NCBI GenBank assembly: GCA_019058315.1
Contig: JAHPZH010000003.1
Coordinates: 779,983 to 843,982 of the forward strand
Source: Candidatus Helarchaeota archaeon
GTDB taxonomy: Archaea > Asgardarchaeota > Lokiarchaeia > Helarchaeales > RDOG01
Direction: 5' to 3'
Length of the DNA stretch: 64,000 nt
In this document: piece after piece, positions 6,236 to 64,000 of the stretch
How positions within the stretch are numbered: the stretch's first letter is position 1
Layout of the letters: the number at the start of each line of letters is the position of its first letter
The notes under the pieces: generated by a model
The model's input: the letters and a program-made list of their open reading frames with translations, nothing else
What the model was told of the DNA's origin: nothing
Databases searched by the model: none
Made by a program: the position numbers and the translations under genes

Positions 6236-8560
6236 ATGGTATTAAGTTGTCTTTATAACGAAGAAGAAAATCAATTTAGAGAGCAAGTAAAGACATTTAT
6301 AAAAGCTAAAATTTTACCATATGTCGAAGAAATTGAAAGTGGTAAATATCCACGTGAATTATTAAGATTATTGGGAGAGAAAGGTTATTTAGGATTAACA
6401 CACAGTAAAGAATATGGGGGTTCGGATAAAGGATGGGTATATGAAACAATAGTTTCAGAGGAATTAGGCGCAGCAAACGGAGCGTTGGATATGGCTCGTG
6501 GAGCAACTTGTATTTTATTCGGAACTCCTGTTTCGAGTTTTGGAACTCACGAACAGAAATTAAAATATTTAAAACCTGTCTTATCTGGTGAAAAACTTGC
6601 TTGCATCGGCATAACAGAACCAGATGTTGGCTCTGATACCGCAGGAATGAAAACTAACGCATATAAAGATGGAGATTTGTGGGTCATCAACGGAGAAAAA
6701 CGTTTTATTACAAATGGTAGTGAAGCGGATTATATTTGCCTATTTGGAATTACTGATAAAAATGTATCATCCCATCATGGAATGAGTGCATTCATTTTCC
6801 CTACAGACACTCCTGGTTTTGAAGTTGTTAAAGTTTATGATTTGCTGGGTATGCATGGAACCCAAACCGCACAATTAAAATTCAATAATTGTCGTATTCC
6901 GTTGGAAAATCTTCTTGGGAAAGAAAATGCAGGTTTTCAGATTCTTATGGATGAATTAGATAAAGAACGAACATTTTATTCAGGAACACTTGCGGGAATT
7001 GCACGCTCCGCATTCGAAATAGCAACAAAATATTCAACTGAAAGAGTTCAATTTGGACAGCCGATTAGTAGATATGAGGGAGTTAGTTTCAAAATTGCAG
7101 ATATGGCAATTAAATTGGAGGCAATTCATACTTTACTTTTAAGATCTGCACGATTATGTGATCAAAACATCCCAGCGACTAAAGAGTCAGCTATTGCAAA
7201 GATTGCAGCCAGTGATTTTGGTTTCGAAATCTGTTGTGATGCTGTTCAAGTATTGGCAGGAATAGGTTATACAAAGGAATATCCTGTTGAGCGTTTTATG
7301 CGTGATATTAAGCTAGGAATGATTGGTGCAGGTACAAGTGAAATTATGAAGTTTCTAATACAAAGGGAGGTCTATAGAGAATTTAAAAAGGGGTTAGAGG
7401 GAAATAGTCAATTGTTTTATACTGAAGAAGAAAACCAACTTCGGAATGAAGTAAAAGATTTTGTAAGTAGAGAAGTTATACCGCATTTAGATGTGATTCA
7501 CAAGGGAGAATATCACCGATCTCTTATCAAAGCATTAGGCTCGAATGGCTTTTTGGGTTATACTCATCCAAAAGCATATGGAGGACAGGAGAAAGGATGG
7601 GTGCAGGAGTCTATTATTGCAGAAGAGGTATCTCGAGCAAGTGGTACTGCTAATATGATCCGCGGAGCCTCTTGTTTGCTTTTTGGAAAGCCAATTCGAT
7701 TATTTGGAACTGAAGAACAAAAGCAGAAATATCTCAAAGAAGTCATAAAAGGAGAAAAAATCGGATGTTTAGGTGTTACTGAGCCAGAAGCCGGAAGTGA
7801 TGTTTCCAGAATACAAACATATGCAACTAAGAAAGGCGATTCATATATTATTAATGGTGAAAAAAGATTTATTACAAACGGAGGTATAGCAGATTATATT
7901 TTAGTATTTGCATTATCTGATAAAAATGCCCCTCCTCGGCAAAATATGAGTTCTTATATTGTTCCCACTGACATTTCAGGGTTTAAGGTGGAAAAAGTTT
8001 ATAAGCTTCACGGAATGCAAGGAACACTTGCTTCCCATCTAAAATTCGAGGATTGTGAAATACCAATTGAGAACCGATTGGGGAATGAGAATCAAGGATT
8101 TGAAATTATGATGAACCAATTTGACACTGAGAGAATCATTTTTGCTACAACTATTCTTGGAGTAATGCAAGCTGCATTCGATATTGTAAAAGACTACTCA
8201 CTTAAACGTGTTCAATTTGGTAGACCAATTAGTCAATTTGAAGGTGTAAACTTTAAAATTGCTGATATGGCAATAAAGATCGAGGCAGCTTCAGCTTTAA
8301 TACTTAAGGCAGCGCGTCTTGTTGATAAAGGGGAAAAAATACCAATGTTATCTGCTATCACGAAAGTATTCGCAAGTGATTATGGTCTAGAAGTAGTTAA
8401 TGATGCACTCCAAGTTATGGGAGGTATTGGTTACACGAGCGAGTACCCTATGGAGAGGTTACTTCGTGATGTTCGCCTAGGAAAAATAGGAGCTGGAAGT
8501 TCAGAAGTCTTGCGCTATCTAATACAAAGAGAAATTTATAAAAAAATTAAGAAGAAATAA
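6236..8560 (+). CDS. Tandem (double-domain) acyl-CoA dehydrogenase
   Basis: Two complete ACAD units, each with TEP.xGSD, NGEKRFITNG, RVQFG.PI, G.GYT.EYP.ER and IGAG(T/S)SE. Confidence 0.92.
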   Translation: MVLSCLYNEEENQFREQVKTFIKAKILPYVEEIESGKYPRELLRLLGEKGYLGLTHSKEYGGSDKGWVYETIVSEELGAANGALDMARGATCILFGTPVSSFGTHEQKLKYLKPVLSGEKLACIGITEPDVGSDTAGMKTNAYKDGDLWVINGEKRFITNGSEADYICLFGITDKNVSSHHGMSAFIFPTDTPGFEVVKVYDLLGMHGTQTAQLKFNNCRIPLENLLGKENAGFQILMDELDKERTFYSGTLAGIARSAFEIATKYSTERVQFGQPISRYEGVSFKIADMAIKLEAIHTLLLRSARLCDQNIPATKESAIAKIAASDFGFEICCDAVQVLAGIGYTKEYPVERFMRDIKLGMIGAGTSEIMKFLIQREVYREFKKGLEGNSQLFYTEEENQLRNEVKDFVSREVIPHLDVIHKGEYHRSLIKALGSNGFLGYTHPKAYGGQEKGWVQESIIAEEVSRASGTANMIRGASCLLFGKPIRLFGTEEQKQKYLKEVIKGEKIGCLGVTEPEAGSDVSRIQTYATKKGDSYIINGEKRFITNGGIADYILVFALSDKNAPPRQNMSSYIVPTDISGFKVEKVYKLHGMQGTLASHLKFEDCEIPIENRLGNENQGFEIMMNQFDTERIIFATTILGVMQAAFDIVKDYSLKRVQFGRPISQFEGVNFKIADMAIKIEAASALILKAARLVDKGEKIPMLSAITKVFASDYGLEVVNDALQVMGGIGYTSEYPMERLLRDVRLGKIGAGSSEVLRYLIQREIYKKIKKK

Positions 8561-30200: not shown

Positions 30201-30990
30201 TACGCATGAATTCGGCAATACTGCCCTTACGAATTACACCTTTAGACGAACTTTCATCTTCCTCTGTAGTTTTGGGTTCTTTAGTTTCTGGAGTTGGTTT
30301 AGTTTCTCTCTTTTCCCGTTTTTTCTTTTTAGTTTTAACCTTATCTTTAATTTTTTTTGGTTTAGGAGAAGGTTTTTTTATGGGTTTTTCTTCAATAACG
30401 GGTGGTTTTTCGGGTGGTTTTTGCACTTCTTCGATTTTTGTTATTTCGGGTTCAGCTTCTACCTTTGGTTTGGATTCCGCTTTAACTTTCTCTTTAGGTT
30501 TAGCTTCTACCTTTGGTTTGGATTCCGCTTTAACTTTCTTTTTAGGTTCAGCTTCTACCTTTGGTTTGGATTCCGCTTTAACTTTCTTTTTAGGTTCAGC
30601 TTTTACCTTTGGTTTGGCCTCCGCTTTAGGTTTAGCTTTAGTTTTTTTCGTCGTTTCTATTTTTTTTGATACTTTAGCAGTTTTTGGTTTAGCTTTAGTC
30701 TTTGCTTCAGAAAAATCTCCCAAATCTTTTTGAGGACCTTTTTCTGTAATTAAATAATAAGTTTTATTTTCTTTACGAATTTTATTTTCCTTTTCTAATT
30801 TTTTTAATATCTTTGCAACTTTTCTACCCTTGATATATTCAGGGGCTGTTTTATCCATACCTTTCTTAATAATAATCCCCAATTTTTTCATAATAGATCT
30901 TGTGGGGATTCCTTTTTCTGTAATTAATTTTAAAATATTTTCTTTAGTTATTTCTTCCAATTTAATTCTTCCAATAGAGTTTTTAACCAC
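27244..30990 (-). CDS. top6B: DNA topoisomerase VI subunit B, greatly expanded (1248 aa)
   Basis: EFLDNSLDG, VFDNGTGM, QTRGSQGFGAS (GHKL), PHP, RFVNRTP, FKSQSKQ (transducer); Lys-rich N-terminus and repeated H2TH units. Confidence 0.93.
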   Translation of the reverse strand: MVKNSIGRIKLEEITKENILKLITEKGIPTRSIMKKLGIIIKKGMDKTAPEYIKGRKVAKILKKLEKENKIRKENKTYYLITEKGPQKDLGDFSEAKTKAKPKTAKVSKKIETTKKTKAKPKAEAKPKVKAEPKKKVKAESKPKVEAEPKKKVKAESKPKVEAKPKEKVKAESKPKVEAEPEITKIEEVQKPPEKPPVIEEKPIKKPSPKPKKIKDKVKTKKKKREKRETKPTPETKEPKTTEEDESSSKGVIRKGSIAEFMRKRTQLVGFDIGFNKHSQYAAEFLDNSLDGIESHNWKHSGYKIRKVLESEQIEQIQNDFKTVTENADGSQYEIARKPILETFNKFIDPIRDIIDREPLAIIRIREIEKPKMLPEEMHGKDIRMFSFEVFDNGTGMIPSDLEKFGLYLASSKSANLKQTRGSQGFGASSAFSDSQNTTGRPIIVITRHESASEGMLSAFYTTSKNEKDYALGPESFRTKMQHGTYVNLNYLNVRYIRGYADEYLRQASFLNGHITLIFIDPYGEVSIYPRRVTEFPNEPKYAQPHPASVLIGEFQDLLRSTNKKDIVSFLSTAFVRLSKNKAKEIVEKANQMLGAAQNILSLSPNDLSDTSIRALYRNLTKSVVCIKKDSPEQLLKSVQNYENKPIIKIFSKFYDYNKDQFEAVLKQLRLITKKAEEMTIDNIKSIQELYRESSFCPFSISFAKFKAYLKDNTNNIEDILSSDFCNLNTYTIKKLILKSEEILKIRNLYALDTEELKKKEIKVIYDSMSKNVNDLELTLDQFQKFLKESEGKSIVTTLKKIKGIGKKSLEVILEECNDQLEYKSLANTPAKDLTQKVLHTIYVQMNDLEKCPSSITVNKFTEMIQETNNKTLSSFLSQNFTGLNKNEIDDLLNETNESLGGTESLELTKPSDLNEDQMNTLFKVFSSENYLAPPTDTVVPVSSENLMKVIDEAFQPAFVEAETRKPTSGKGLAFGVEVAIAYGGQIKDASRANDVLYRFVNRTPKLRDNSDCAIWKAVGSVNWKNYKLDAFDNGLPRGKVRVIVNVSGPFVHVMFKSQSKQALADDETLKREVQLGLEEVGRKLRSYLLKKEKKKKRARRASLLLNHVKAFAESLNNILQSDGELAQKTSVDEIEKLMINPIEKDIREDILTILPTNWTPLDEMIEDLGLNQLKEKWIINDLIIPILVNLESQNIILKETRDEVVDEEIYEEDGVEKKRVKKKKFDYYKLVSEIEPVKKDSIEQPAS
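30449..30627. repeat. 48-bp coding tandem repeat (~3.7 copies) in top6B N-terminus
   Basis: Units begin at 30451, 30499, 30547, 30595 (TT(C/T)AGCTT(C/T)TACCTTTGGTTTGG...); encodes PKKKVKAESKPKVEAE. Confidence 0.95.
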
Positions 30991-50591: not shown

Positions 50592-53500
50592 ATGGGCATG
50601 GATAATATACTTACAGTTAAGCCAGATTATTTGGGGAGATTAAATCTTATAACTGCAGTTGATCTATTTCGTGAATTACTTTGGGCTGAAGCAAGAAAAA
50701 ATGGAATACCAATAAGTAAGATTCATGTTTCAAGTCGTGTAACTGTAGCTGATGGAGGAATAGATGCTGAAGTTGATGAAACCAATATCACAAGTGATTT
50801 AATAATATCAGGAACAACAGGCTATCAGATAAAAACTGGTACTTCATTTGAACCATGGAGAGAATCTATAATAAAAAAAGAATTATTTGGTGAAAATAAA
50901 CCCGCAATTCTACAGAATTTAGGTCTAAGTATTAAAAATATTCTTGATAAAAATGGTACCTATGTAATCGTTTGTTTTGGGCATGATCTTGTATCTACCC
51001 AACGTACAGAAGCTCGAAGTATTATCTACGACTTTTTGACCGATTGTGGATATGAAAACCCGGATATAGAAGTTTGGGGTCAGACACAATTAATAGGATT
51101 TATTAGTGTATTTCCTTCATTGGTCTTGAAATTGATGGGTAGAGATAATTTAAAATTTCAGTCTCATACAAGTTGGGCTATGCAAGATGACATGAGAAAA
51201 ACATTTAACGCAGGAGAAGAACAACTAAATTTCATTCGTAAAATGCAAGATGAGTTAAGAAAAAATGACAAAGCTATACACATTAGAGTATTTGGTGAAC
51301 CAGGCATTGGCAAGACAAAACTTGTTTTAGAAGCCACAAGAGCGGAAGACCTTTCACCGCTAATTTTATACTGCAGCTCAGCTTCTATATTCAGAGATAG
51401 CAATTTAATGTACGAGCTTTTAAGGACTGATAATCAATTTCATGTGATCATAGTGATAGATGAATGTGATCAAGACAATCGTTCATATATATGGAACAAA
51501 TTTAAACATTATGGACCAAGAATAAAAATAATCTCAATTTTTAATGAATTTGATGAAACTACAGGGAACATTACCTATCTTGAAGTATTTAAACTGGAAA
51601 ATGAACAGATTTCTCTAATAATTCAGGGATATGGAATTGGTGAAGCACCTTCCATTAGATTTGCCGAAATTTGTGGCGGATCTCCAAGATATGCCCATCT
51701 TATTGGAAATAATTTAAGATATAATCCTGATGATATTTTTAAACCTCCTGATACGGTAGATATATGGACAAAACAAATTATTGGATCCGATCCTCCAGAT
51801 AGTGAGAAAGTTAGAAAAATAAGAATAATTCTTCGTCATATAGCACTCTTTAAAAAATTTGGTTATGAAAAACCTGCTGGTTCAGAAGCGGAAGAGATTT
51901 TAAAACTTATACAAAAAGTAGATCCCGATATCTCATGGGGTCATTTTCAAGAAATTATTGAGGAACTAAGAAATCGCAAGATACTTCAAGGTGAATTCAC
52001 TTTATATATAACTCCTAAAGCACTTCATATTAAATTATGGATAGAATGGTGGGAAATTTACGGAAAGTCAATTAAATTAGAAGAATTTTTAAAAAATCTT
52101 TCTTCACAGTTAAGGGAATGGTTTAATAATATGTTTAAATATGCTAAAGAGTCAAAATTTTCTTTAGAGAAAGTAAATGAAATTCTAGGAGAAAATGGAC
52201 CATTTCAAAAAGATTTTTTTTTTAATACCTCTTTAGGAGCAAAATTTTTTCTTGCTTTGACAGAAGCCAACCCTAAATCTGCATTAATATGCCTTAATAA
52301 AACAATCGGTCAAATGAGTAGGGAAGAACTTACAAAATTCAAAGATGGTCGCAGAGAGATAGTTTGGGCTCTTGAAAAGATAGTTATCTGGAAAGATTTA
52401 TTTATTGGAGGAGCTGATATTTTATTAGCACTTGCTGAAGCAGAAAATGAATCATGGTCAAATAATGCTACTGGTATTTTTATTGATTTATTTTCTCCTG
52501 GTTTTGGTCATGTTTCTATGTCAGAGGCATCACTTGAAGAAAGATTTCCAATTTTAGAAAAAGCAATTGAGTCAGATTCGAAGCTAAAGCGTGAAATAGG
52601 ATTTAAAGCATTAAATAATTCACTCAAGACTGGAAGATTTTCACGTATAGTGGGTGCAGAATATCAAGGGTTAAAAATGGGACCTAAATTTTGGGTTCCT
52701 AAAAATTATGAGGAAATTATAGACTGGTACTCAAAAATTTGGGATTATTTATTAGATAAAATGGATTATTTGATTGAAGATGAAAAGAGTACTGTAATTG
52801 ATATTCTACTTAATAATTCAAGAAATTTGATAATAATAAAAGAATTAACTAGAAAAATTATTGAAACATTAAAATTTTTAATAGAGAAGTTTGAACATAA
52901 AAGAAATGATATATTAAAGCATATTATAAATATTATACGTTATGAAAACAAAAATTTGGATGAAATTACATTAAATGAATTAGAGAACTTGAAGAAAAAA
53001 ATAATTGGAAATGATCTCCATTCCTTATTAAAAAGGTATGTAGGATTGATACTTATTGAAGATATGATTGACGAAAATGGAAAACATATTGATAAGAAAA
53101 AACCAATACTTGAAAAATTGGCAGTTGATGCAATTAAAAATAAAGAGAAATTAATACATGAGTTAGAATGGTTAACAACTTCTGAAGCAAAGGATGGCTC
53201 CAGATTTGGTTATGAATTAGGAATTAAAGATGAAAATTTTTCTTTGTTACCTAAATTAATTGAAACACAGAAAAAAATAAAACCAGATTCAAGTTTTATG
53301 TTTCTTTCTGGCTATTTTCGTGCGGTTTTTGAATTGAATCAGAATTTATGGGAAGAAAAATTAGATAACCTTAAAGAAAATAAAGAAACCATTAAATGGA
53401 TTCCTGAATTGACATTTAGAACAGGAATTACTGATAGAGCTGCTCTCCGTCTGCTTAGATTATTAGAAAAAGGATCTTTAGAGATAAAAGATTTTCAGAA

Positions 53501-54386
53501 TTATTTGTTGGGGAATGTTTTTAAGGTACTTTCTGAAGATATTGTCGAGAAATGGATAAGTTACTTATTAAAATTATCCAATAAAATAGCAATTAATCTA
53601 ATTTTAAATATACTTCATTTTTATTATTTATTAAAAAAGCCAAAAAAGAAATTACCTAAAGATATTACATTTAGGGTTTTAACTTCTCCAGTATTAATTC
53701 AAATGCCAAGTAATGTAGGATATCATTCATTAGAATTGGATTGGATAGAAATTGCCAAAGAATTTATATCATTATATCCAGATTCGAGTATTAAGCTTGC
53801 TGATAAAATTTTAGAAAACTTTGGGAAGGAAGGAACAATTTTTGATAGATATAACTCAAGAACTCCGACAATTCTTAATCAGATAACAATAAAGTCTCCA
53901 AAAGAAGTCTGGGAAAAAATTATAAAATATATAGGTCCCCCTATAGATTCAAGGGCATTTCATATAACAAAATGGTTGAGAGGGGATGAATTCTCGGAAT
54001 TTGGAATTAGAGGTGCTTTATCTGTTATACCTCCACAAGAAATATGGAAATGGATAGATCAAAATATTGAAGAACGAGCATGGTATGTTGCAAGTTTTGT
54101 ACCCAAAATTCTTTTTAGAGACCCAGACAAAATTTGTTTAGCAAGGGAAGTTCTTGTTAGATATGGAAATAGAAGAGATGTGAAGGATAATTTAATAGCT
54201 AATTTTTTAACAGAGGGTTGGATGGGACCTGCAAGTGTTTATTTTCAAAGTAAAAAAGACAAACTAATAGAATTTGCAAAATCTGAAAAAAATGAATTTG
54301 TAGTTAACTGGATTAATGAATATATCTCTCAAATAGAAAAAGATATAAAAAATGCAAAATTTCAAGAAGAACGACGTTTTCCTTAG
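50592..54386 (+). CDS. Restriction-endonuclease-like effector + STAND-type NTPase + helical repeat domain (AVAST/Avs-like antiviral candidate)
   Basis: ADGGIDAEV...GYQIKTG (D..QxK nuclease), Walker A GEPGIGKT, Walker B IIVIDEC, CGGSP (GxP), long helical C-terminus; 1264 aa. Confidence 0.75.
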   Translation: MGMDNILTVKPDYLGRLNLITAVDLFRELLWAEARKNGIPISKIHVSSRVTVADGGIDAEVDETNITSDLIISGTTGYQIKTGTSFEPWRESIIKKELFGENKPAILQNLGLSIKNILDKNGTYVIVCFGHDLVSTQRTEARSIIYDFLTDCGYENPDIEVWGQTQLIGFISVFPSLVLKLMGRDNLKFQSHTSWAMQDDMRKTFNAGEEQLNFIRKMQDELRKNDKAIHIRVFGEPGIGKTKLVLEATRAEDLSPLILYCSSASIFRDSNLMYELLRTDNQFHVIIVIDECDQDNRSYIWNKFKHYGPRIKIISIFNEFDETTGNITYLEVFKLENEQISLIIQGYGIGEAPSIRFAEICGGSPRYAHLIGNNLRYNPDDIFKPPDTVDIWTKQIIGSDPPDSEKVRKIRIILRHIALFKKFGYEKPAGSEAEEILKLIQKVDPDISWGHFQEIIEELRNRKILQGEFTLYITPKALHIKLWIEWWEIYGKSIKLEEFLKNLSSQLREWFNNMFKYAKESKFSLEKVNEILGENGPFQKDFFFNTSLGAKFFLALTEANPKSALICLNKTIGQMSREELTKFKDGRREIVWALEKIVIWKDLFIGGADILLALAEAENESWSNNATGIFIDLFSPGFGHVSMSEASLEERFPILEKAIESDSKLKREIGFKALNNSLKTGRFSRIVGAEYQGLKMGPKFWVPKNYEEIIDWYSKIWDYLLDKMDYLIEDEKSTVIDILLNNSRNLIIIKELTRKIIETLKFLIEKFEHKRNDILKHIINIIRYENKNLDEITLNELENLKKKIIGNDLHSLLKRYVGLILIEDMIDENGKHIDKKKPILEKLAVDAIKNKEKLIHELEWLTTSEAKDGSRFGYELGIKDENFSLLPKLIETQKKIKPDSSFMFLSGYFRAVFELNQNLWEEKLDNLKENKETIKWIPELTFRTGITDRAALRLLRLLEKGSLEIKDFQNYLLGNVFKVLSEDIVEKWISYLLKLSNKIAINLILNILHFYYLLKKPKKKLPKDITFRVLTSPVLIQMPSNVGYHSLELDWIEIAKEFISLYPDSSIKLADKILENFGKEGTIFDRYNSRTPTILNQITIKSPKEVWEKIIKYIGPPIDSRAFHITKWLRGDEFSEFGIRGALSVIPPQEIWKWIDQNIEERAWYVASFVPKILFRDPDKICLAREVLVRYGNRRDVKDNLIANFLTEGWMGPASVYFQSKKDKLIEFAKSEKNEFVVNWINEYISQIEKDIKNAKFQEERRFP

Positions 54387-54505
54387 TTTCGTAGCTTTAA
54401 TTTTTTTTCTTTTAGTTCTAATAGATTTAAGAACTATAATTTAATGAAATTAATTAACTTAAAACTAATTTATTTTTTGATATTATAAAAAAATTGGAGG
54501 ATATT

Positions 54506-55681
54506 ATGAAGTTTAATAATATCGATGAAAGGAAACTATATTCAGTGATTAACAAAGAACTCTTTGATGAATTGGATAAAGAATATTGGGATAAGAGAAT
54601 GGAAATTATAGGGTATGAAGTTTATACAGATTGTGCTATTAGTGGGGAATGGATTTATGATCCATATTTCTTATTAATTGATGAAAATTTTAAATCTAAC
54701 CAAAAAGCAAATAAAAAATTAAAATTGATAATAACTTTTTTTCGATATCCAAGAGAAAATATCATCTCTCCCCAAACTGCAACGAAAAAGGAACAATTTT
54801 ACCATGGTGGTCATATTGAGAATGAAATTGTTACACTTGCATCCCTCTTCTTACGTAAAAGATTTGAACTTGGACCAATGATTTTTATGGGTAATAAGGA
54901 TGTAATTGCTAGACCAATCAAAAAACAAATAAAAACACCCAATAATGAAGATAAAACTAAGAATATACCTGCACCTGAGATTATAACAATAAATAATCCA
55001 TTAATTGATCCAGAAATAGTTGAAAAAACTAATAATCTTAACGAATTGACAGAATGGTTCAAATTATTAGAAAAACTAGATCCGAAATACCATTTAAAAT
55101 TTATGCTAGCCGTAAGAATGTATTATCAAGCGTTATTTCAAATCGAAAAAGAACCAGATCTAGCATATTTGAATCTAGTTTCAGCAATTGAAGTTTTGTG
55201 TCAAGATACTAATATTGGTGAAATCAAACTTACTGAAATTAATCAAAAGTTGGCTAAACTTTTAGAATCTATAGACAATGTTCAATTAAGAAATGATATT
55301 GAAAAATCTATTTTAAAAGAAAAAAAGTTTATAGCACGTAAATTTAGTAAATTCATTCTAAATAATATCGAAAATAATTTTTGGAATGAACCAAATCGAC
55401 CAAATACAGGAAGAATTACTCATGAAGAGCTTCCTGATTTATTAATGAAAATTTATCAACAGCGTTCAAGGACATTACATAGTGGAGAACTTTTTCCACC
55501 ATTTAAGACAATGATGAGATTTGTACCAAGAGAGGAAATAAATAAACGGGCAGTATGGTGTCTAGATAGAATTCAATGGTATCCCAAAGATCTAATTCCT
55601 TATCCTCAATTTTTTGAAAAACTGGTGAATCATGTATTAAAAACATTTCTTAGGAGAAATCAATTAAAGAAAGATATTTGA
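54506..55681 (+). CDS. ApeA-like HEPN-domain RNase
   Basis: AYLNLVSAIEVL helix and R-x4-H motif RSRTLH (55463-55480); GGAGG RBS before ATG 54506. Confidence 0.75.
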   Translation: MKFNNIDERKLYSVINKELFDELDKEYWDKRMEIIGYEVYTDCAISGEWIYDPYFLLIDENFKSNQKANKKLKLIITFFRYPRENIISPQTATKKEQFYHGGHIENEIVTLASLFLRKRFELGPMIFMGNKDVIARPIKKQIKTPNNEDKTKNIPAPEIITINNPLIDPEIVEKTNNLNELTEWFKLLEKLDPKYHLKFMLAVRMYYQALFQIEKEPDLAYLNLVSAIEVLCQDTNIGEIKLTEINQKLAKLLESIDNVQLRNDIEKSILKEKKFIARKFSKFILNNIENNFWNEPNRPNTGRITHEELPDLLMKIYQQRSRTLHSGELFPPFKTMMRFVPREEINKRAVWCLDRIQWYPKDLIPYPQFFEKLVNHVLKTFLRRNQLKKDI

Positions 55682-55980
55682 AATTAGAATATATTTAAAA
55701 TATATACCTAGAATAAAGGTTCAGAAAGTTATCACAAATTCAGATAAATGTCATGATTGATAAAATTTCAATTTAACATAAATCAGAATATATTATATTA
55801 TCAACCCTGGCAGCACTATAAATTACAACTGTATTGACTAATCTACGATAGCAATATCAAACATACCTAAACATCCTAATATATTATTAAAGGTAAATGA
55901 ATAAAATACATTCAGATTTTGGATTTAAAATATAGTAATGAACTACCAAACAGGAAACTGAATGATATTCGTCCCGATTT

Positions 55981-56105
55981 TGTCATCATACTCCTCACGG
56001 AGTCGGAGGAACTGGCTGGTCCACACAGCCCCTTGCCGTACATCTCAGAGACCTCTTGATGTAAGGCACTGTGTCAAAGTTTGCGAATTGTCGAGAGACT
56101 TTGCC
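55981..56105 (-). ncRNA. Putative TnpB omegaRNA scaffold / element right end
   Basis: GC-rich run of hairpins overlapping the tnpB 3' end: 56075-56103, 56034-56068, 56014-56030 and ACTCC-GTGA-GGAGT (GNRA loop on minus strand, 56003-55990). Confidence 0.6.
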
Positions 56106-57448
56106 CCGCTTTGAGTCGTATTAATGGCACCATTTAATATGGCGGAGGCTGATAAATCCACATTACCCGTTGCCAACAATCTCACCTTCCGTATCATCGG
56201 AAAGTTCTTAACTGATGGCACTTTTTTAAACTTTGACAATAAATTCACATATCCAATTATTGTTTTCAAACCATTATTCATTTTATGTGAGCCACTGTAT
56301 AAATCCATAAGTCCTTTTAGGGCAATATTCAACGACGCATTTCTATCCCTATGATCAACATGACCACAATGGCTACATTTGAAAAGCCTTTTATGTTTAT
56401 GTGATTCTTTTTTAGTCTGGCAGACTACACAGTTCTGGGAAGTATAGTGAGGGTTAACGCAATAACTAAAATAACCACGAATAAATGCTTTATATGTAAT
56501 AAAATCTTGCAACTTCTTAAATCCCCAATTGTGATATTTCAAATTATTCTTTTTTCCCCAATTTATATTATCCCGGATATTTGTGAGGTCCTCGAAAATA
56601 ACTACAGGATTTTGAAACTTTGAAATCCACTCTACTGCCAATTTACTAGCAATATGAAGGATATGATTTGTAATTTTTCGCTGTTTTTTACCTACTTTTT
56701 TTACCATTGAAGTTTTATTACGTTTCTGGAGTCGTTTTCTTATCTTGAAAAATTGATATCGTTGATGAGCAAGAGGTGAATAATCTATTATAAGAGACCC
56801 TAAAACCTCACCATTTGAATTCAACGCACTTAAAGCTAAATTAGTAGTATTATTATCAATACCAATAAAAGTATAACTTTTAAAATCATCATATGTTGCC
56901 TTTTTTCCCAAATCAACATTAATAATTAAATAATATTTTTTCCCCATTTTTTTCAAATTTGCACTCCCAAATTTTAAAGCTTCTGCAAGTCCAAGCTCGA
57001 CTATTTTCATATGTCGCTCTGAACCAATAAATTCTAAGATCATCCTTACACCCTTTCTCATACTAATCCTAACTTGATTATGTTTTAATAATCTATACCC
57101 TTCATTTGGTCTAAGTCGAACAGTCATAGATTTGATTACTGGATTAGGTGGTCTAGCACGATTATCAACTTTACTCTTTCTTAAATACGACTTTATAGAT
57201 TCATTTGCCACATCACGGCAACATTGCCTAGTACTTGCTAATATATTCCCCTTTACTTGACAGCTTTCCAAAAACATTTTAGAATAACGTCCAGACTTTT
57301 TCCAATGTTCCAGATATTGTTTGTAAACCGCCCCATACTCTCTCATTAGATCGTCTAATTGTTCTTCTACCTTTTTTGAGGTAATCAAAAGCTTAAATTT
57401 CATCGCAATTATGAGATTATCTTTTTTATTTTTGTTATTCCAAGGCAT
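56045..57448 (-). CDS. tnpB: TnpB / Cas12f-like RNA-guided endonuclease (IS200/IS605-IS607 family), no adjacent tnpA
   Basis: RuvC-I FIGID, RuvC-II VIFEDL, W.F..LQ..I.YKA, YTSQNCVVC..FKCSHCG Zn finger, RuvC-III HRDRNASLNI. Confidence 0.92.
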   Translation of the reverse strand: MPWNNKNKKDNLIIAMKFKLLITSKKVEEQLDDLMREYGAVYKQYLEHWKKSGRYSKMFLESCQVKGNILASTRQCCRDVANESIKSYLRKSKVDNRARPPNPVIKSMTVRLRPNEGYRLLKHNQVRISMRKGVRMILEFIGSERHMKIVELGLAEALKFGSANLKKMGKKYYLIINVDLGKKATYDDFKSYTFIGIDNNTTNLALSALNSNGEVLGSLIIDYSPLAHQRYQFFKIRKRLQKRNKTSMVKKVGKKQRKITNHILHIASKLAVEWISKFQNPVVIFEDLTNIRDNINWGKKNNLKYHNWGFKKLQDFITYKAFIRGYFSYCVNPHYTSQNCVVCQTKKESHKHKRLFKCSHCGHVDHRDRNASLNIALKGLMDLYSGSHKMNNGLKTIIGYVNLLSKFKKVPSVKNFPMIRKVRLLATGNVDLSASAILNGAINTTQSGAKSLDNSQTLTQCLTSRGL

Positions 57449-57498
57449 AACTTATCTATTATTAATTTATATATAAACCCCCCTTTAATTTTAGTTTG

Positions 57499-57717
57499 GG
57501 AAAGACTTTCCGAAAATTTTAATTATATAAACTTTGACACTCGCCGCTTTTTTTGGTTCCAGAACATTTTGTCCTTTCTTAGATTAGTCTAGAGCCAAAT
57601 TTGGAATCAAAATCGTTATGTTATTTATAAAGTAAAATTAGCAATTTGGCGTTTTTGGAAAAGTGGTCTAAGAAAAATTTAAATATCAAACATAGAGCCT
57701 GGCTTTCCTAAAATTTT
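57499..57717. promoter_or_regulatory. Structured divergent intergenic region between tnpB and the giant ORF
   Basis: GGAAAG-A-CTTTCC palindrome 57499-57511; CTTTCC(G/T)AAAATTTT direct repeat at 57506 and 57703; long stems within 57551-57675. Confidence 0.45.
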
Positions 57718-57762
57718 TTCGAAAATTTTGTGAAAATTTCGGAGTTGAAAAAATTGCTCGCA

Positions 57763-60700
57763 ATGTCGTCATACTTTAATAAGTTGAAATTACATCTGAA
57801 AAGGAATGGTATTGAGGAAGATAAACTATATGAACACCAAAAAAAAGCACATAAGTTATTATTTGAGGGTTTTAATTATGCTGCCTTTGTTCCAACAGGT
57901 TTTGGAAAAACAGAAGATGCTTTGGCTGCTCTTGGACGTGCATTATATTATAATCGAGTTGGGGTTTATCTCGTACCCCGAGTGATGTTGCTCCACCAAA
58001 AAGCAAAACTGCTAAAAACATTCTTTAAGGGAATCGCACGGGTTATTATCATCCAAGGTGATATAAAACCCCACCCAAGGGAGTTAAAGAGTCCGTGGGG
58101 AAAGCTCATTATTGTGGCAACATTTGAGAGCTTTAGAGCTTTCTTATTCTCAATCCAAAAAAGAAAATATTTTGACAGAAAAACGAATATCTTTGGTTCT
58201 GTAGTTATTGATGAAGTGCACATGCTCGGAGACAGAACCCATGGAGCTGCACTTGAGACAATGCTATATAAATTACATAGGGAGCACGATTCTCAGTTTT
58301 GTTTTTTAAGTGGGAGTTTTGAAAAAACTTCTGCTGATTGGTGGTGCAAAAGGTTCAACTGTAAATTAGAATATATATCTCACGAACGGGATTTTTATTG
58401 CTGGAATATTTACGCCGAGTATCCTACTTTTAAATGGAAGGATAATAAAATCAAAGGATTATGCTACGAATTTTTAGAATTTCATATATCTCACGATATT
58501 CAGGATTCAGCAGAAATACGCTCAGGAAAGATGGTGATTTTTGCGAGAAGTCGTAAAAAAGCGGAAATATATTGTAATAACGTTAAAAACTCCTTAACAT
58601 CTAGTAGACCTAAGTATGAAGACCATTTTAAATGCAGTTTTATACACGCGGGTATGGCATTAGAGGAAAGAAAACAAATTTTTGATGAGTTTAACAGTGA
58701 TGAGGGTGTTAGATTTCTTTTTTGTACAACAGTGATTGAAGTAGGTATCGATGTAAAAAATATTGAGGTGGTCTTGATAGAAGATGCTCATTCGTATTCA
58801 GCCATTAAAAGAACCCAGATGATTGGCAGGATGAGGTTGAATCATGGAGTAGTCATAAATATAATTCGAAATTTTTCTAAACGAATTTTTAAAGAATCAA
58901 TAATTTATGAAAAAACATACCTCGCGAATCAAATCTTACCCAGTATAAATTGTGTACTATTAGGTCTGTATTTTAAGTTATTTGGGAAAAAGAGAATATT
59001 TAGGAGAAAAGAGTTTTCTTCGAAAGAATACGAGAAAGGTAATAATATATTTCATTATAAAGATACCGAACCCATTAGAGGGTATAAATTAAGAAAAATT
59101 TATAGTGACGTTAGTCTTGGACATTTACCCAATCTAATACTTGAATCGTTATTTCGTTCCCCAAAAAACTTATCACAAATACAACAACATATAAGGGGAA
59201 TAATTAGAGAGGACCTGCTCAATAAAAATGAAAATATGATTGAGGAAATAATTAAAAAATTCAAGGCTAAAAAATATATAAGGTCAACAGGAGGTATTTT
59301 TAGTTTAACATATCTTGGGGAGGCTATAGTGGAGGGACACTTACCAGAATTATATTTAGATTGGGTTCTAAAGCTATTCGAAGATGATATCAATCTCCCG
59401 ACTCGAAAATTAAAAACATTAATTGCAGAAATGGTCGCGATCAAAGAAGCAAATTTTAAGAATTATGATGATGTAAAAAAATTCGTTAGAAAATACAATA
59501 ATGACCCGATAATTTATGCTGAAAATCTTAAAAAATATGGGATTTTAAAGGGAGATGCAGATGTTTATCGTCGCTGTGCTGCTTGGATTGCTAGCGCTAT
59601 TTACTTACTTTATAGGGGGTATCAGTTCCATAATTACGTTGAAAAAGTTCGTTCCAACAATGAATGCAAAAATGAAAGTGTGTCTTCAAAAAACTGTCCT
59701 AATTATTTACAAGTGAGACTCAAGGAACCAAGGAAAACTTCTAAAAGGATTTGTAATAGAATTAATCGAATTATTAAAACTTTTCAAAAACCTGGTAAGA
59801 ACATAAATCTGCAAAAACCTCCCATGTGGGAGTATCAAAAATATCATAGTCCAAATGAGGCTGCCTTATTAGACGAAAAGATCATTAAAGTAATGGGAGA
59901 AAATGATGGGCCTACTAAATATGAACTTACCCAAAAAATTAACCGCGACCCTGACTATAAAGACACCCTTATTACAGAGTCAAGAATTGCAGGACGGTTG
60001 AGAAAAAGCCTGGCATCAGAAATTCAGTGTGTCAAGGTTTACAATAATATTGGCGCACCCTATTTCAGATATTATTTAAAGGGAAATGTGCCAGAGCAAA
60101 GTGAGTTCACTTGCGCAGATTGTAATAATTTTGATAAAGATCCGGCCAGAAGGATTTCAACAGCAGCTACAATTTATACTTGCCAAAAATTGCAAATAGC
60201 GATAAACGCGAATACCCCTTCATGCGCTCATTTTGAACCGTATGAAAATGAATCTAGGACGTTTGCTATTTTTCCATTCAAATGGAACGTAGAGATATGC
60301 CCCAATTGTAATAAGAGAAAAACTATAAGAATGCCTCAACATGGAGAAGCGACCATTTGTAGGTATTGTAATGCCCTTGTTGAGCGAACGGGCAATGGTA
60401 CTTTTAGAACCACTACCAGACATAAAATCTCAGAAGACTTGGTCTTGAAGGATGATAATGGGATGAAATATATTGAAACTGATCCGAATAAGAGGGCAAT
60501 TTTTGTTCCAAAGAACCATGCATTAGTAACTGAATTCATTCCCCAAGGGAAATATTACATCGTTAAAGTACATGGACTCGGAATACGATCTTTTTTACAA
60601 CAGGTCGCTGAAGTGGTCATGGCAGGGGGGACTATATGCGAGGATACTAAAGAACTTCTGAAACAATATGAAATAAAAATAACAACTTTTTCTGATGAAC

Positions 60701-63700
60701 AAGTTCAAGAGCTGGAACAAAGAAAAAAACGGGAAGATGAGCTTCGGAAATTACTTCGAAGTAAGAGAGCTAAGGGAGAATCATTAAACATTGCACAAGA
60801 GCGGAATTACGCTAAAATTACCTCTGAGATGCTTTGTCTTAAAAAAATGAGGCGGTTATTTCCTGAATATACATCCCTTATTAATAAGACAATTAAAAAA
60901 ATGATGGACCAGCTTATTCAAACCTATTTAGACACAAACCAAGAGTTAGCTAGGGCGAAAAAAAAGAAGGAAATAGTCCAACTAGTAACCAAAAAATTAC
61001 GGATGATAGAAGGTATAGTTACAGAGTTCGGTTGGAAGGTTTATAGAGTAATAATAGGAGATAAATGTCCTGAATTAGAAACCTATGGAAGAGGAGCGAC
61101 GAGATTTGCCCGATCTATAAGAAAGAGTAAAGGTAAAGCCCTTGATAAATTAAATGCAGTGTTAAATTATCTGTATTATCAGCTCCAAATAGTAGGAAGT
61201 GAGGCGTTATACGAAGCTGGATTTTCTAAACGGTTTCCAGGACCGGGTTTATTGCATTACAGGAGAAAAAAGCCTAGAAAACGCGGAAGAAAATATAAGG
61301 CATTGTACTGGACCATGACGAAAAGAAATCAGGGAGCAATTTTTGATTTTATAGATCAATATAAACCCATCATAAATTTCTATCTATTTAGATTCATCCT
61401 TGATGGGGAGTTGGATCCTAAAACAGACATTTGGCAAAAATATGATGAACGAAAAAGAAGGATTTATTACCTTTCTCCACACGGAAGAAATAAAATAAAA
61501 GAGTTATTTGAACAAATTTGTTCCTTAAAATTTGTATATAAAAATAAAAAATTCACCTTTAAAACCATAATGAGAAAAGAAGCTGAAAACTTAGCTAGAT
61601 ATTTAGAATCAAAACGCAAAATAATTTATACTCCTTTTTTTGCCTTTGAAACTGAAGATGATGCGATTTGGGCGCATAGCAGCTTACGCTTCATACATAA
61701 TGTTTTGGGAAAGGGGAAATATAGAGGGCATATATCTCAACATTTTGAAACCAAATATGCGAAAAAACGGAAAAAAGTAACGCGTAGAAGACGGACTGTC
61801 CCCTCCGAACCCAAAAAGTTACCTATTAATGTAGTTATCGTGCACCATGTCGATTTTGACGGGTTTAAGTCTGCACTTAACCTCGTCTATAAACACCTAA
61901 ATGACAGGATACATCTTTTTTATGCAACAAACAAAAAAGGAAGAAATTATATTGAATCGGTGCTTGAAAATAAGATAGCAAGTGTGTTACACCGAAACAT
62001 GAAAAACATAATTTATATAGCAGATTTTCCTCTACCGCTAGAGCGTAAAGACTTTCTTTTAAATTTTTTAACTGGGTTAAAGAGGAGAGGGTTGACATTT
62101 GAGCCCTACTGGTTCGATCACCACGATACTTCTGGAGTTCGGCAAATGAGGAAAGTGTTACAAGAGTTCAGTGGGAAATTCATCCATACAAATGATGAGA
62201 CTGTTGAAACGTATGATTTAATAATAAACCATATTAGAAGTGCTCGACCTAGAATTAAGGATGTTAAAGCATATCAACAACTTAAAATTGATACAGTAGA
62301 GGATTTTGATGATAAATTGAGAACCATAAATACTTCTGCTAATTTAAGTAATTGGCATGAACAATATGACTATTATCGCCTTGTATCTCATTATAAAATA
62401 AATTTTCTTAATTTTTTTAAGCGCATTTGTGTGTGTGAAATAAACGAAGAAATACCTAAAGAGACTAAAGGATTTAAACGGTATCAAGCTAAGATTGAGG
62501 CACTTATTAAAAACCCTAATCAATTGTTATATTATTATGAATTTGGGGAAACCGGTTACGGGTATACATATGCACTATTTATGTTTAAGAAAAGCTTTCC
62601 ACTTAGAAAAATTGATAAGCTTGTAAAAACCCTGGGTAGAAATCCCAGAGAATTGGATATCAAGATTTTTTACTGGTCAGACCATACCATATCATTACGT
62701 GCAAAAAAATCAACTCCCATTAGCTTCCACGGGCTGTTAGGTGAGCAGGAGGGACACAAAAAAGCTTCTGGAGTACATTCACTAAAGGTCAAATTTATCC
62801 CTCATAATATAGATGCTTATAATTACCTTGATTTTGAATATGGGTATGTCACGTCCATAGCAGAGTTTATGGCAAGGCTCAAAATTAGCCCTCTTCAACA
62901 AGCATCTGGAGCGTTTTCCGCTATAAAAACCGGCATATCCACCTTTGATAAGTATGAATATGACTTTATGACCCTTTCGGATATGGGAGAGCCTTGTTTT
63001 CCTACATTTTTAAAGAAAATGGATAAAGTAATAAAAGGGTTTCATAGGGGTTCGGTAATTTTGCTATTTTGTCATAAATATGACCGACATAGGATGATGT
63101 ATTTTATCAAATATTTGATGTTAATAGCACAGCACAAAAAAGGATTGCACTCAAAAAAAGTAGTGTGCATTGATACAACAGCATATCCCTTTTATCGAAA
63201 GATGCTCTCATTCATGAAAACGTATGGAAAGTTTACTCTGGAGCATCTAAAAAATATCATATTCATTAATACATTGAATTTAGCTAAGTTACATGATGCA
63301 GTGGATGGGTTAAAAGGAATAATAGAAACCTATCAGCCAAGATTAGTGGTGATAACTTCCCCATTTGCTAGTATTAGAAAGAAACATCCAATTAAGAACC
63401 ACTTAATTCCTTACGAGGTAGAAACTACCTCTATACGGTCAACGGAAGCGGCACGATTAATGATGAAAATTAAAAAGATAGCACGAAATACAGGGACGAT
63501 ATTCTTGCTTACCCACCACGTAAATTGGTATAAAGTATTTAAGACCAAGAACCCCTACCTCTATAACTCAATAAGCTTTGATACCTCAATTTTCTTAAAA
63601 AAAGAAGAACACAACACACTTAAATTTCATATAACCCACATAAGGCAACCAGATGCGACATGTAACATAAAACTTGAACTCAAGAGAAAGATGCTTCAAT

Positions 63701-64000
63701 TGCATGATATATGTTACAGCTCTATATTAAAAGGAACTAAAGTAATTCGCAATAATATCACAGAATCCTGCCCCGAATTAGCTTATTGCATGGAAGGATA
63801 TAATAAATATGGGGTAAAATTCCTTATTTTTAAGTTCAATCGAGGGGTTCGTGGAGTCCATAAATTAAGAAACAGGCTAGGGATTAACAGAAGTCTAGAT
63901 ATTGTTATAAGGGCGGATAATAGAATAGATGTTTATAACTTTGAGCCCGAATTTATTAATTTAGACGCTCTATTACATTTTGGGGGAGTCCCAAATGAAG
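57763..64000 (+). CDS. Giant multidomain Cas1-fusion protein (Hel308-like SF2 helicase - wHTH/Zn fingers - Cas1 - DHH/DHHA1 - degenerate RadA - DHHA1-like), 3'-truncated by the window
   Basis: Hand-translated frame has no stop from ATG 57763 to 64000 (2079 codons; in-frame GTG/TTG at 57730/57745/57754). Motifs: PTGFGKT, DEVH, HAGM, QMIGR; LRMIEG, DKLNAVLNYLY, GLLH, DFIDQYKP; HHVDFDG, IADF, FDHH, GHKKASG; VVCIDT, LVVITS. Confidence 0.88.
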   Translation, partial: MSSYFNKLKLHLKRNGIEEDKLYEHQKKAHKLLFEGFNYAAFVPTGFGKTEDALAALGRALYYNRVGVYLVPRVMLLHQKAKLLKTFFKGIARVIIIQGDIKPHPRELKSPWGKLIIVATFESFRAFLFSIQKRKYFDRKTNIFGSVVIDEVHMLGDRTHGAALETMLYKLHREHDSQFCFLSGSFEKTSADWWCKRFNCKLEYISHERDFYCWNIYAEYPTFKWKDNKIKGLCYEFLEFHISHDIQDSAEIRSGKMVIFARSRKKAEIYCNNVKNSLTSSRPKYEDHFKCSFIHAGMALEERKQIFDEFNSDEGVRFLFCTTVIEVGIDVKNIEVVLIEDAHSYSAIKRTQMIGRMRLNHGVVINIIRNFSKRIFKESIIYEKTYLANQILPSINCVLLGLYFKLFGKKRIFRRKEFSSKEYEKGNNIFHYKDTEPIRGYKLRKIYSDVSLGHLPNLILESLFRSPKNLSQIQQHIRGIIREDLLNKNENMIEEIIKKFKAKKYIRSTGGIFSLTYLGEAIVEGHLPELYLDWVLKLFEDDINLPTRKLKTLIAEMVAIKEANFKNYDDVKKFVRKYNNDPIIYAENLKKYGILKGDADVYRRCAAWIASAIYLLYRGYQFHNYVEKVRSNNECKNESVSSKNCPNYLQVRLKEPRKTSKRICNRINRIIKTFQKPGKNINLQKPPMWEYQKYHSPNEAALLDEKIIKVMGENDGPTKYELTQKINRDPDYKDTLITESRIAGRLRKSLASEIQCVKVYNNIGAPYFRYYLKGNVPEQSEFTCADCNNFDKDPARRISTAATIYTCQKLQIAINANTPSCAHFEPYENESRTFAIFPFKWNVEICPNCNKRKTIRMPQHGEATICRYCNALVERTGNGTFRTTTRHKISEDLVLKDDNGMKYIETDPNKRAIFVPKNHALVTEFIPQGKYYIVKVHGLGIRSFLQQVAEVVMAGGTICEDTKELLKQYEIKITTFSDEQVQELEQRKKREDELRKLLRSKRAKGESLNIAQERNYAKITSEMLCLKKMRRLFPEYTSLINKTIKKMMDQLIQTYLDTNQELARAKKKKEIVQLVTKKLRMIEGIVTEFGWKVYRVIIGDKCPELETYGRGATRFARSIRKSKGKALDKLNAVLNYLYYQLQIVGSEALYEAGFSKRFPGPGLLHYRRKKPRKRGRKYKALYWTMTKRNQGAIFDFIDQYKPIINFYLFRFILDGELDPKTDIWQKYDERKRRIYYLSPHGRNKIKELFEQICSLKFVYKNKKFTFKTIMRKEAENLARYLESKRKIIYTPFFAFETEDDAIWAHSSLRFIHNVLGKGKYRGHISQHFETKYAKKRKKVTRRRRTVPSEPKKLPINVVIVHHVDFDGFKSALNLVYKHLNDRIHLFYATNKKGRNYIESVLENKIASVLHRNMKNIIYIADFPLPLERKDFLLNFLTGLKRRGLTFEPYWFDHHDTSGVRQMRKVLQEFSGKFIHTNDETVETYDLIINHIRSARPRIKDVKAYQQLKIDTVEDFDDKLRTINTSANLSNWHEQYDYYRLVSHYKINFLNFFKRICVCEINEEIPKETKGFKRYQAKIEALIKNPNQLLYYYEFGETGYGYTYALFMFKKSFPLRKIDKLVKTLGRNPRELDIKIFYWSDHTISLRAKKSTPISFHGLLGEQEGHKKASGVHSLKVKFIPHNIDAYNYLDFEYGYVTSIAEFMARLKISPLQQASGAFSAIKTGISTFDKYEYDFMTLSDMGEPCFPTFLKKMDKVIKGFHRGSVILLFCHKYDRHRMMYFIKYLMLIAQHKKGLHSKKVVCIDTTAYPFYRKMLSFMKTYGKFTLEHLKNIIFINTLNLAKLHDAVDGLKGIIETYQPRLVVITSPFASIRKKHPIKNHLIPYEVETTSIRSTEAARLMMKIKKIARNTGTIFLLTHHVNWYKVFKTKNPYLYNSISFDTSIFLKKEEHNTLKFHITHIRQPDATCNIKLELKRKMLQLHDICYSSILKGTKVIRNNITESCPELAYCMEGYNKYGVKFLIFKFNRGVRGVHKLRNRLGINRSLDIVIRADNRIDVYNFEPEFINLDALLHFGGVPNE

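Follow-up and report, generated by a model that had tools for sequence, protein, structure and literature searches.

CRISPR owes its memory to the enzyme Cas1, and TnpB is the ancestor of Cas12; to our knowledge, casposons are so far the sole characterised use of Cas1 outside CRISPR, and the Cas1 homologues of Asgard archaea were reportedly dealt with by Makarova et al. in 2020. Two groups of Asgard TnpB proteins ('Cas1H-Asgard-1/-2') have been linked to a diverged Cas1, named aCas1, which was proposed to act as a transposase (Altae-Tran et al. 2023, PMC10691335); these aCas1-TnpB loci are often flanked by repeats and carry, downstream of tnpB, a hypervariable segment followed by the motif GTTCACTCA (PMC10691335). 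The locus described here lies at the end of a 64,000-nucleotide stretch of archaeal DNA (the window), where a tnpB gene stands head to head with a giant open reading frame (ORF), hereafter the giant. The Cas1 domain found in this ORF is very probably part of an Asgard-type aCas1 giant fusion that is coupled to TnpB.

The giant ORF begins with a GTG codon at 57730, homologous to the ATG start of its paralogue, and runs on the forward strand (57730..63999+) for 2090 codons without any stop up to the last base of the window, where contig C11 ends; judged against the 2147-aa paralogue, it is short by about 45 codons. The encoded protein carries, in this order, a Hel308-like superfamily 2 (SF2) helicase, a zinc ribbon, the Cas1 domain, a DHH/DHHA1 nuclease and a RadA-like domain without P-loop (Table 1). 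Between the window copy and its paralogue, the ratio of nonsynonymous to synonymous substitution rates (dN/dS) is 0.19 overall, 0.075 for the helicase, 0.18 for the zinc ribbon and Cas1 domain together and 0.15 for the DHH domain, with a dS of 0.70, which makes the copies old.

The first-pass annotation, made from the letters of the window, had recognised a Cas1 domain at 60490-61641. This stretch reads through without stop codons, and the Cas1 landmarks, among them VAEVVMAGG at 60604 (the end of the beta domain), DKLNAVLNYLY at 61144 and YTPF at 61627, were all located in the translation at the positions and in the order that had been given. The metal-binding Glu/His/Asp set proposed at that time is also present: E1094, H1176, D1206 and D1209 correspond to E141, H208, D218 and D221 of E. 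coli Cas1, are invariant in 22 homologues (24-79% identity) and align to the Cas1 motifs, D1206-F-I-D1209 being aligned to the D-L-M-E / D-L-Q-E of A. fulgidus Cas1 (4N06) and M. mazei casposase (6OPM). The Pfam model Cas_Cas1 (PF01867) matches the excised domain with an E value of 1.8e-6 (27.8 bits, against a cut-off of 22.3 bits), the paralogues at 23.8-38.8 bits and 22 of the 23 database relatives. The Cas1 model of PADLOC gave 5e-15, and TIGR00287 gave 4e-12 (45.9 bits), under its equivalog cut-off of 71.7 bits. Moreover, a profile built from eight paralogues and relatives matches 4N06 (9e-11) and 6OPM (7.7e-8), with the IEG Glu, the N..N motif, the GxLH His and the D-x-x-D/E pair in register. 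For residues 845-1320, the AlphaFold2 model obtained with 22 homologues (pLDDT 86.9, pTM 0.82) displays the two-domain Cas1 fold, N-terminal beta and C-terminal helical, and the comparison with Cas1 and casposase structures, which had been suggested as a check, bore the assignment out, the top 50 Foldseek matches in the PDB all being Cas1 or casposase chains (best 9.4e-13). Prediction of a complex of two Cas1-region copies scored 0.00, below the mark, which is uninformative either way on dimerisation.

The very basic insert that had been noticed between the His and the Asp proved to be a feature of the whole family, as a K/R-rich loop of variable length, about 14 residues longer than in 4N06. 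In the window copy it includes the run RRKKPRKRGRK (61261-61293) and is predicted to be disordered (pLDDT about 48-61); a function as an added DNA-binding surface is plausible. With CRISPR Cas1, of which A. fulgidus 4N06 is the best match, the domain shares the two-domain fold and the E/H/D..D(E) active site, whereas it differs in these ~14 extra basic residues, in its score below the TIGR00287 equivalog cut-off and in its setting, as no cas2, array or leader was found in the genome.

The assembly to which the window belongs (5.8 Mb, 30% GC, 12 contigs, 94% complete) is archaeal, since ribosomal protein L31e is encoded in it, and its assignment to the Asgard archaea is deduced from a full-length eukaryote-type actin (448 bits) in an archaeal genome. 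Canonical cas1, cas2 (PF09827) and cas4 genes were not found in this assembly, the controls of the PF09827 search being positive, and neither a k-mer chain search nor Tandem Repeats Finder returned a CRISPR array, coding tandem repeats being the only ones detected. The absence of cas2, cas4 and array, which had been noted for 64 kb, therefore holds for the whole assembly. A 48-nt tandem repeat within the window (30449-30628; 3.8 copies, 95% matches) is apparently coding and is not a CRISPR array. As the Cas1 domain stands outside any CRISPR-Cas context, a canonical leader-repeat cannot be its substrate, in agreement with the earlier proposal of a substrate other than a canonical leader. Similarly, the lack of a family-B DNA polymerase (PolB) in the 64 kb extends to the entire contig: the two PolB genes of the genome lie on contigs C6 and C2, and none is in the unit formed by tnpB and the giant. 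A Y1 transposase TnpA (PF01797) was not detected in the genome, with positive controls, nor any Rfam family in the window.

Five Cas1-family matches exist in the genome, and all five are within giant ORFs of 1439-2766 aa with the helicase preceding Cas1, which are 26-40% identical to each other. Beyond this genome the giants are rare: an exhaustive search of 1.84 billion representatives gave only 25 clusters, while a homologue search with the Cas1 region of a paralogue gave no matches; the family is present in 3 of 41 related genomes. The N-terminal helicase is found in every genomic copy and in 15 of 23 database relatives (the rest are mostly fragments), and the C-termini vary, including DHH plus RadA-like domains, leucine-rich repeats (LRR), WD40 and a STAND NTPase (nSTAND3). 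A search of genome contigs with a single peptide pattern returned two loci, contig C38 of genome G003 and a weak alphaproteobacterial match. Contig C38 (L019/L028) bears the public label 'Candidatus Deferrimicrobium sp.', a bacterial name, and its genome is placed in the order of the window archaeon; probably the label is wrong or the bin is mixed.

The domains that surround Cas1 were identified by motifs, profiles and structure comparison. In the helicase, the Walker A motif PTGFGKT, the DEVH box and QMIGR were located, Hel308-type helicases are the top NCBIfam matches, and the linker that follows carries a weak signal of a winged helix or Hel308 domain 4. The four Cys of the zinc ribbon are nearly invariant across 23 family members. 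The DHH domain presents the motifs HHVDFDG, IADF, FDHHD and GHKKASG, with DxD, D and DHH nearly invariant in the family; the Pfam DHH model matches one family member alone (1.3e-6), and the two-lobed DHH/DHHA1 fold was recovered by structure comparison (Atlas lead 0.91), VIA-align giving Z 17.1 for 6MTZ, 16.5 for 5YH1 and 13.4 for archaeal RecJ2 7YKV (model residues 9-369). Finally, the RadA-like domain has Foldseek matches to Rad51/RadA down to 3.7e-13, and VIA-align superposes it on RAD51 paralogues with Z 21.6 (rmsd 2.9 A over 217 residues) and on RadB with Z 18.4. A Walker A P-loop (GxxxxGKT/S) is absent from this domain, its position being occupied by FCHKYDRH, and there is no conserved GKT in the family consensus; judging from the sequence, the domain is therefore probably devoid of ATPase activity. 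Fusion of Cas1 to a substrate-preparing enzyme is also known from RT-Cas1, Cas6-RT-Cas1 (7KFU, which is among the fold matches) and Cas4-Cas1, but those proteins work with Cas2 and an array, whereas in the giant Cas1 is joined to helicase, DHH nuclease and RadA-like domains, and Cas2 is absent.

Table 1. Coordinates of the features of the locus (window positions unless a locus handle is given; a point marks a feature without strand).
Feature	Position	Strand	Remarks
Left border and conserved non-coding stretch 3' of tnpB (omega-RNA-like scaffold)	55932..56044	-	Homology of three copies starts sharply
tnpB, 467 aa	56045..57448	-	Pfam Cas12f1-like TNB 3.5e-18; PADLOC Cas12u3/Cas12f to 1.7e-27
Divergent intergenic (promoter) region, tnpB to giant	57449..57729	.	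Between both start codons; internal to the duplicated unit
Giant ORF	57730..63999	+	2090 codons seen; dN/dS 0.19 vs paralogue
SF2 helicase core (DEAD + Helicase_C), Hel308/Ski2-like, aa 35-368	57832..58833	+	Pfam 1e-16 and 9e-16
CxxC..CxxC zinc ribbon, directly N-terminal of the Cas1 domain	60298..60372	+	Weak TFIIB-type Zn-ribbon match
Cas1 domain, aa ~910-1305: N-terminal beta + alpha-helical catalytic domain	60457..61644	+	Profiles, AlphaFold2 model, Foldseek
Catalytic Glu E1094 (LRMIEG)	61009..61011	+	Invariant in 22 sequences; aligns to IEG Glu of 4N06 and 6OPM
Catalytic His H1176 (GLLH)	61255..61257	+	Invariant in 22 sequences; aligns to GFLH of Cas1
Basic insertion between H and D..D	61258..61341	+	All family members; absent from 4N06/6OPM in alignments
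D1206-F-I-D1209 (FDFID), equivalent to E. coli Cas1 D218/D221	61345..61356	+	Both Asp invariant in 22 sequences
DHH/DHHA1 phosphoesterase (RecJ/NrnA-like), aa ~1365-1720	61822..62889	+	Motifs, VIA-align
RadA/Rad51-paralogue-like domain, aa ~1746-1984	63019..63741	+	Foldseek, VIA-align
Winged-helix/coiled-coil gene	L011 14417-14953; L013 5373-5894; start of contig C2	- (L011, L013)	Related copies

The second component of the locus is TnpB, in which the RuvC residues D196/E286/D368 and a CxxC..CxxC zinc finger are present, the motifs GIDNN, IFEDL and HRDRNAS having been located. A divergent tnpB lies upstream of the giant at all seven loci whose upstream side is readable, which come from three genomes and a metagenome (the window and its paralogue, the paralogue on C6, a contig from a metagenome, a pair of loci in genome G006 and a single one in G003). 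The TnpB proteins of these loci form two groups that are only 14-21% identical between groups, so that the link between giant and tnpB must have been made or renewed more than once. The intergenic DNA at 57449-57762, which the first-pass annotation had put forward as a donor end, corresponds to the internal divergent promoter region of the two genes; the borders of the unit lie elsewhere.

These borders have been defined by comparison of repeated copies of the unit, of ~8.2 kb. Window positions 55932-64000 match C11 722151-730254 at 80.8% identity. The left border, about 113 nt past the tnpB stop codon, is common to three copies with unrelated flanks; the right border is the stop codon of the giant gene, where homology ends both in the complete paralogue and in the third copy. 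The window copy is without a right end owing to the end of the contig, and several contig ends fall inside copies of the unit. The non-coding stretch after tnpB is ~91% identical to that of the paralogue, against 80.8% for the whole unit, a higher conservation that is expected of an omega-RNA scaffold. The third copy is internally deleted, a fragment of tnpB being fused to the final ~670 nt of the giant. Its joint was recovered as a contig joint at genome-like depth in a sequencing run that is the probable source of the assembly, and hence does not count as independent evidence; low-depth relatives of the unit occur in two other sediment runs. Furthermore, a CoA-ligase-like gene (ADP-forming acyl-CoA-ligase-like, with a CoA-binding N-terminus; L011 5886-6179, + strand) breaks off precisely at the border of the paralogous copy. 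An apparent tblastn extension of this gene into the element turned out to be spurious.

On the tnpB side, the unit ends with a hairpin followed by GTAGTTCAT; the window copy keeps GTAGTTCAT, with a degenerate hairpin. As a pattern, hairpin plus GTAGTTCAT occurs at three sites of the genome, all of them downstream of a giant-linked tnpB, the window copy not being matched by the pattern. The C6 copy is among these sites although its TnpB belongs to the other group, and because hairpin and GTAGTTCAT are common to both TnpB groups, the end motif tracks the giant (37% identical) and not TnpB (~20%). After GTAGTTCAT the sequence differs in every copy (window 55905-55931; C8 88-125; L012 ~7830-7872), and in two of the four copies, those of the window and C8, a variable segment of 9 or 17 nt is followed by an identical TTAAATCCA. 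With respect to a second hairpin at the left end, genome-wide 10-mer searches were uninformative and a stricter pattern gave right-end copies only.

The organisation of the unit can be compared with three kinds of described elements. With IS200/IS605 it has in common a tnpB with an omega-RNA-like 3' region that ends at the border, a subterminal hairpin, asymmetric ends without terminal inverted repeats (TIR) or target-site duplications (TSD), a second gene divergent from tnpB, and the RuvC D-E-D and zinc finger of TnpB; the second gene, however, is a 6.4 kb helicase-Cas1-DHH fusion and not a 130-aa Y1 transposase. The Asgard aCas1-TnpB loci resemble it in their Asgard host, as deduced above, a diverged Cas1 by tnpB in the place of a Y1 or serine transposase, the existence of two TnpB groups and a variable sequence just past the omega-RNA scaffold, but here no flanking repeats were found, which in the published loci are frequent and hence no strict hallmark, GTTCACTCA is not near any tnpB of this genome, and the end motif is hairpin plus GTAGTTCAT. 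Casposons likewise use, outside CRISPR, an integrase of the Cas1 fold with identical catalytic residues, and the casposase 6OPM is a top match of both profile and fold; nevertheless, this unit has no PolB, TIR or TSD, its Cas1 lacks a C-terminal helix-turn-helix and is embedded in a giant fusion, and its partner is tnpB.

The reading that we tentatively prefer is that the giant is the stand-in for TnpA, that is, the DNA-moving enzyme of an IS605-like element. It would take the place of the Y1 TnpA and move or copy the ~8.2 kb unit. In this scheme, DNA would be opened or unwound by the helicase and one strand trimmed by the DHH nuclease, which together would ready single-stranded or trimmed ends for the Cas1 site; the Cas1 active site (E1094/H1176/D1206/D1209) would cleave and join. 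TnpB, guided by the RNA ending at the unit border, would cleave sites that lack the element, which would thereby be kept or copied back. We infer every enzymatic step, the present mobility of the unit, and Cas1 rather than another factor as the mover. The position of the giant relative to tnpB, the asymmetric ends with their subterminal hairpin, the lack of another transposase and the repeated unit with a deletion derivative argue for a mobile IS605-like unit moved by the giant.

Several observations weigh against it. No TIR was found at the borders of the complete paralogous copy, the alignment of which is within the shuffled null, so that the search for such repeats, suggested by the first-pass annotation, came out negative; nor is there a TSD, the best direct match between the flanks of that copy being 6 nt, and integration by Cas1 and casposase normally leaves a target duplication. 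The missing ~430 codons of the cut CoA-ligase-like gene are neither at the other border nor elsewhere in the assembly, and the insertion site is consequently not clean. Moreover, the age of the copies (dS 0.70, 80% identity) and the low identity of the five paralogues (26-40%) recall a gene family rather than an active insertion sequence; next to two of these paralogues there is no tnpB; and the C-termini vary among LRR, WD40 and STAND NTPase, as in immune sensors. In genome G006 (L026, L027), two giants that are 93% identical at the DNA level have tnpB neighbours only 48% identical in protein, with the breakpoint of homology between the start codons of tnpB and giant, which indicates that the tnpB cassette was exchanged and that the pairing has been maintained or re-created, not simply inherited as one unit.

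Part of this evidence is what would be expected of a fixed surveillance or repair machine, in which the helicase, DHH and RadA-like scaffold deal with DNA that is damaged or comes from invaders, Cas1 serves as a structure-specific nuclease, the variable C-terminal repeats are sensors, and TnpB or a RAMP module is a co-opted defence partner. The missing TIR and TSD, the variation of the C-termini (LRR, WD40, nSTAND3), the five diverged paralogues under purifying selection and the helicase-Cas1-LRR paralogue ~4 kb from a RAMP-family gene all suit such a machine, as do the sporadic distribution (3 of 41 related genomes), which is that of accessory defence genes, and the Hel308, RecJ-like and RadA-like parts, which are components of fork repair or recombination. 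We nonetheless regard it as rather unlikely, in view of the 8.2 kb unit, the borders of which are sharp in three copies (a deletion derivative included), with a host gene cut at one of them, of the RadA-like domain without P-loop, and of PADLOC, which gave generic Cas1 and helicase models and no other defence model. The age of the copies (dS 0.70), the degenerate terminal hairpin of the window copy and the existence of a deleted copy could also be read as signs that the window copy is a decaying pseudogene relic of an old element; with 2090 codons open, a dN/dS of 0.19 (0.075 in the helicase) and the catalytic motifs of helicase, Cas1, DHH and TnpB all intact, this is very improbable.

The variable segment after GTAGTTCAT, with the shared TTAAATCCA behind it in two of four copies, raises another possibility, namely an array-less adaptation in which the giant captures DNA and installs or replaces a single guide at the 3' end of the TnpB omega-RNA gene, and also the guides of RAMP-linked RNAs at other paralogues, as a one-spacer precursor or offshoot of CRISPR adaptation. 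The repeated ties of this Cas1 family to effectors guided by RNA, which comprise a RAMP module and TnpB of two unrelated groups, and the presence of helicase and exonuclease, activities needed for making prespacers, would fit, as would the published observation that a hypervariable segment lies between conserved motifs 3' of tnpB genes linked to aCas1 (PMC10691335). Yet just three or four copies are comparable, a segment of 9 nt does not suffice for a guide, one copy borders on the cut host gene and not on the shared motif, the variable segment is without a duplicated flanking repeat, and the published GTTCACTCA is not near these tnpB genes; besides, the IS605 guide is flanking DNA, which explains variability without acquisition, and we consider this adaptation distinctly improbable. 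Most remote of all is the stand-alone orphan Cas1 integrase of the first-pass annotation, with the basic insertion as a new DNA-binding surface. Its catalytic residues are intact and its basic loop is real, but the stretch has no start or stop codon around it and is an in-frame domain of the 2090-codon ORF, fused to helicase, zinc ribbon, DHH and RadA-like domains and with tnpB as partner, and the N-terminal helicase recurs in the five genomic copies and in most database relatives; the continuous ORF refutes a separate gene model.

Other genes were observed around the paralogues. Directly upstream of the C7 paralogue, on the same strand, there is a LAGLIDADG-domain protein instead of a tnpB (L013 14595-15620, -), with a multi-zinc-ribbon protein beyond it. 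One tnpB-less paralogue is the helicase-Cas1-LRR fusion, ~4 kb from the RAMP-family gene, which encodes a RAMP-superfamily protein (PF03787, 5.7e-7) upstream of it (L014 15774-16619, +); a stand-alone LRR gene comes right after this paralogue. The locus looks like the ARAMP-Cas1 arrangement of Asgard archaea, a link summarised in PMC8730458. At the C6 paralogue, one of the PolB genes (L012 5168-7759, -) immediately follows the 3' end of tnpB; it is either the replicative PolB of the host or cargo. Just downstream of two giants a protein of ~175 aa is encoded, with a winged helix and a coiled coil and a weak TBPIP/Hop2 match; its two copies are 55% identical, against ~34% for the giants beside them, and the protein may represent a third component or belong to a larger element. 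Finally, two large ORFs (1264 aa and 395 aa) stand at window 50592-55681, just beyond the left border of the element, the 395-aa one without a Pfam family.

The association of a diverged Asgard Cas1 with TnpB is already published, computationally only (PMC10691335). For the DHH and P-loop-less RadA-like domains of the giant, no description was found in the literature, Makarova et al. 2020 and the PMC10691335 supplements lying outside its coverage. Within the same limits, none was found for an end motif that tracks the giant across TnpB groups, for a tnpB swap between near-identical giants, or for the lack of TIR, TSD and Y1 transposase in such an assembly.

The locus offers a defined test case, with exact catalytic residues, a complete paralogue, a natural deletion derivative, borders and a candidate end motif, in a genome that revealed no cas1/cas2, tnpA or array by which experiments might be confounded. 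Should the giant be a transposase or a guide installer, it would be a new single-chain tool for DNA insertion, and should array-less adaptation be true, it would represent a still-living stage between the RNA-guided nucleases carried by transposons and the adaptive immunity of CRISPR. An intact-looking Cas1 combined with helicase, RecJ-like and RadA-like domains, and repeatedly found with TnpB, amounts to a second, experimentally untouched, non-CRISPR use of this enzyme, and bears on how integrases and RNA-guided nucleases joined.

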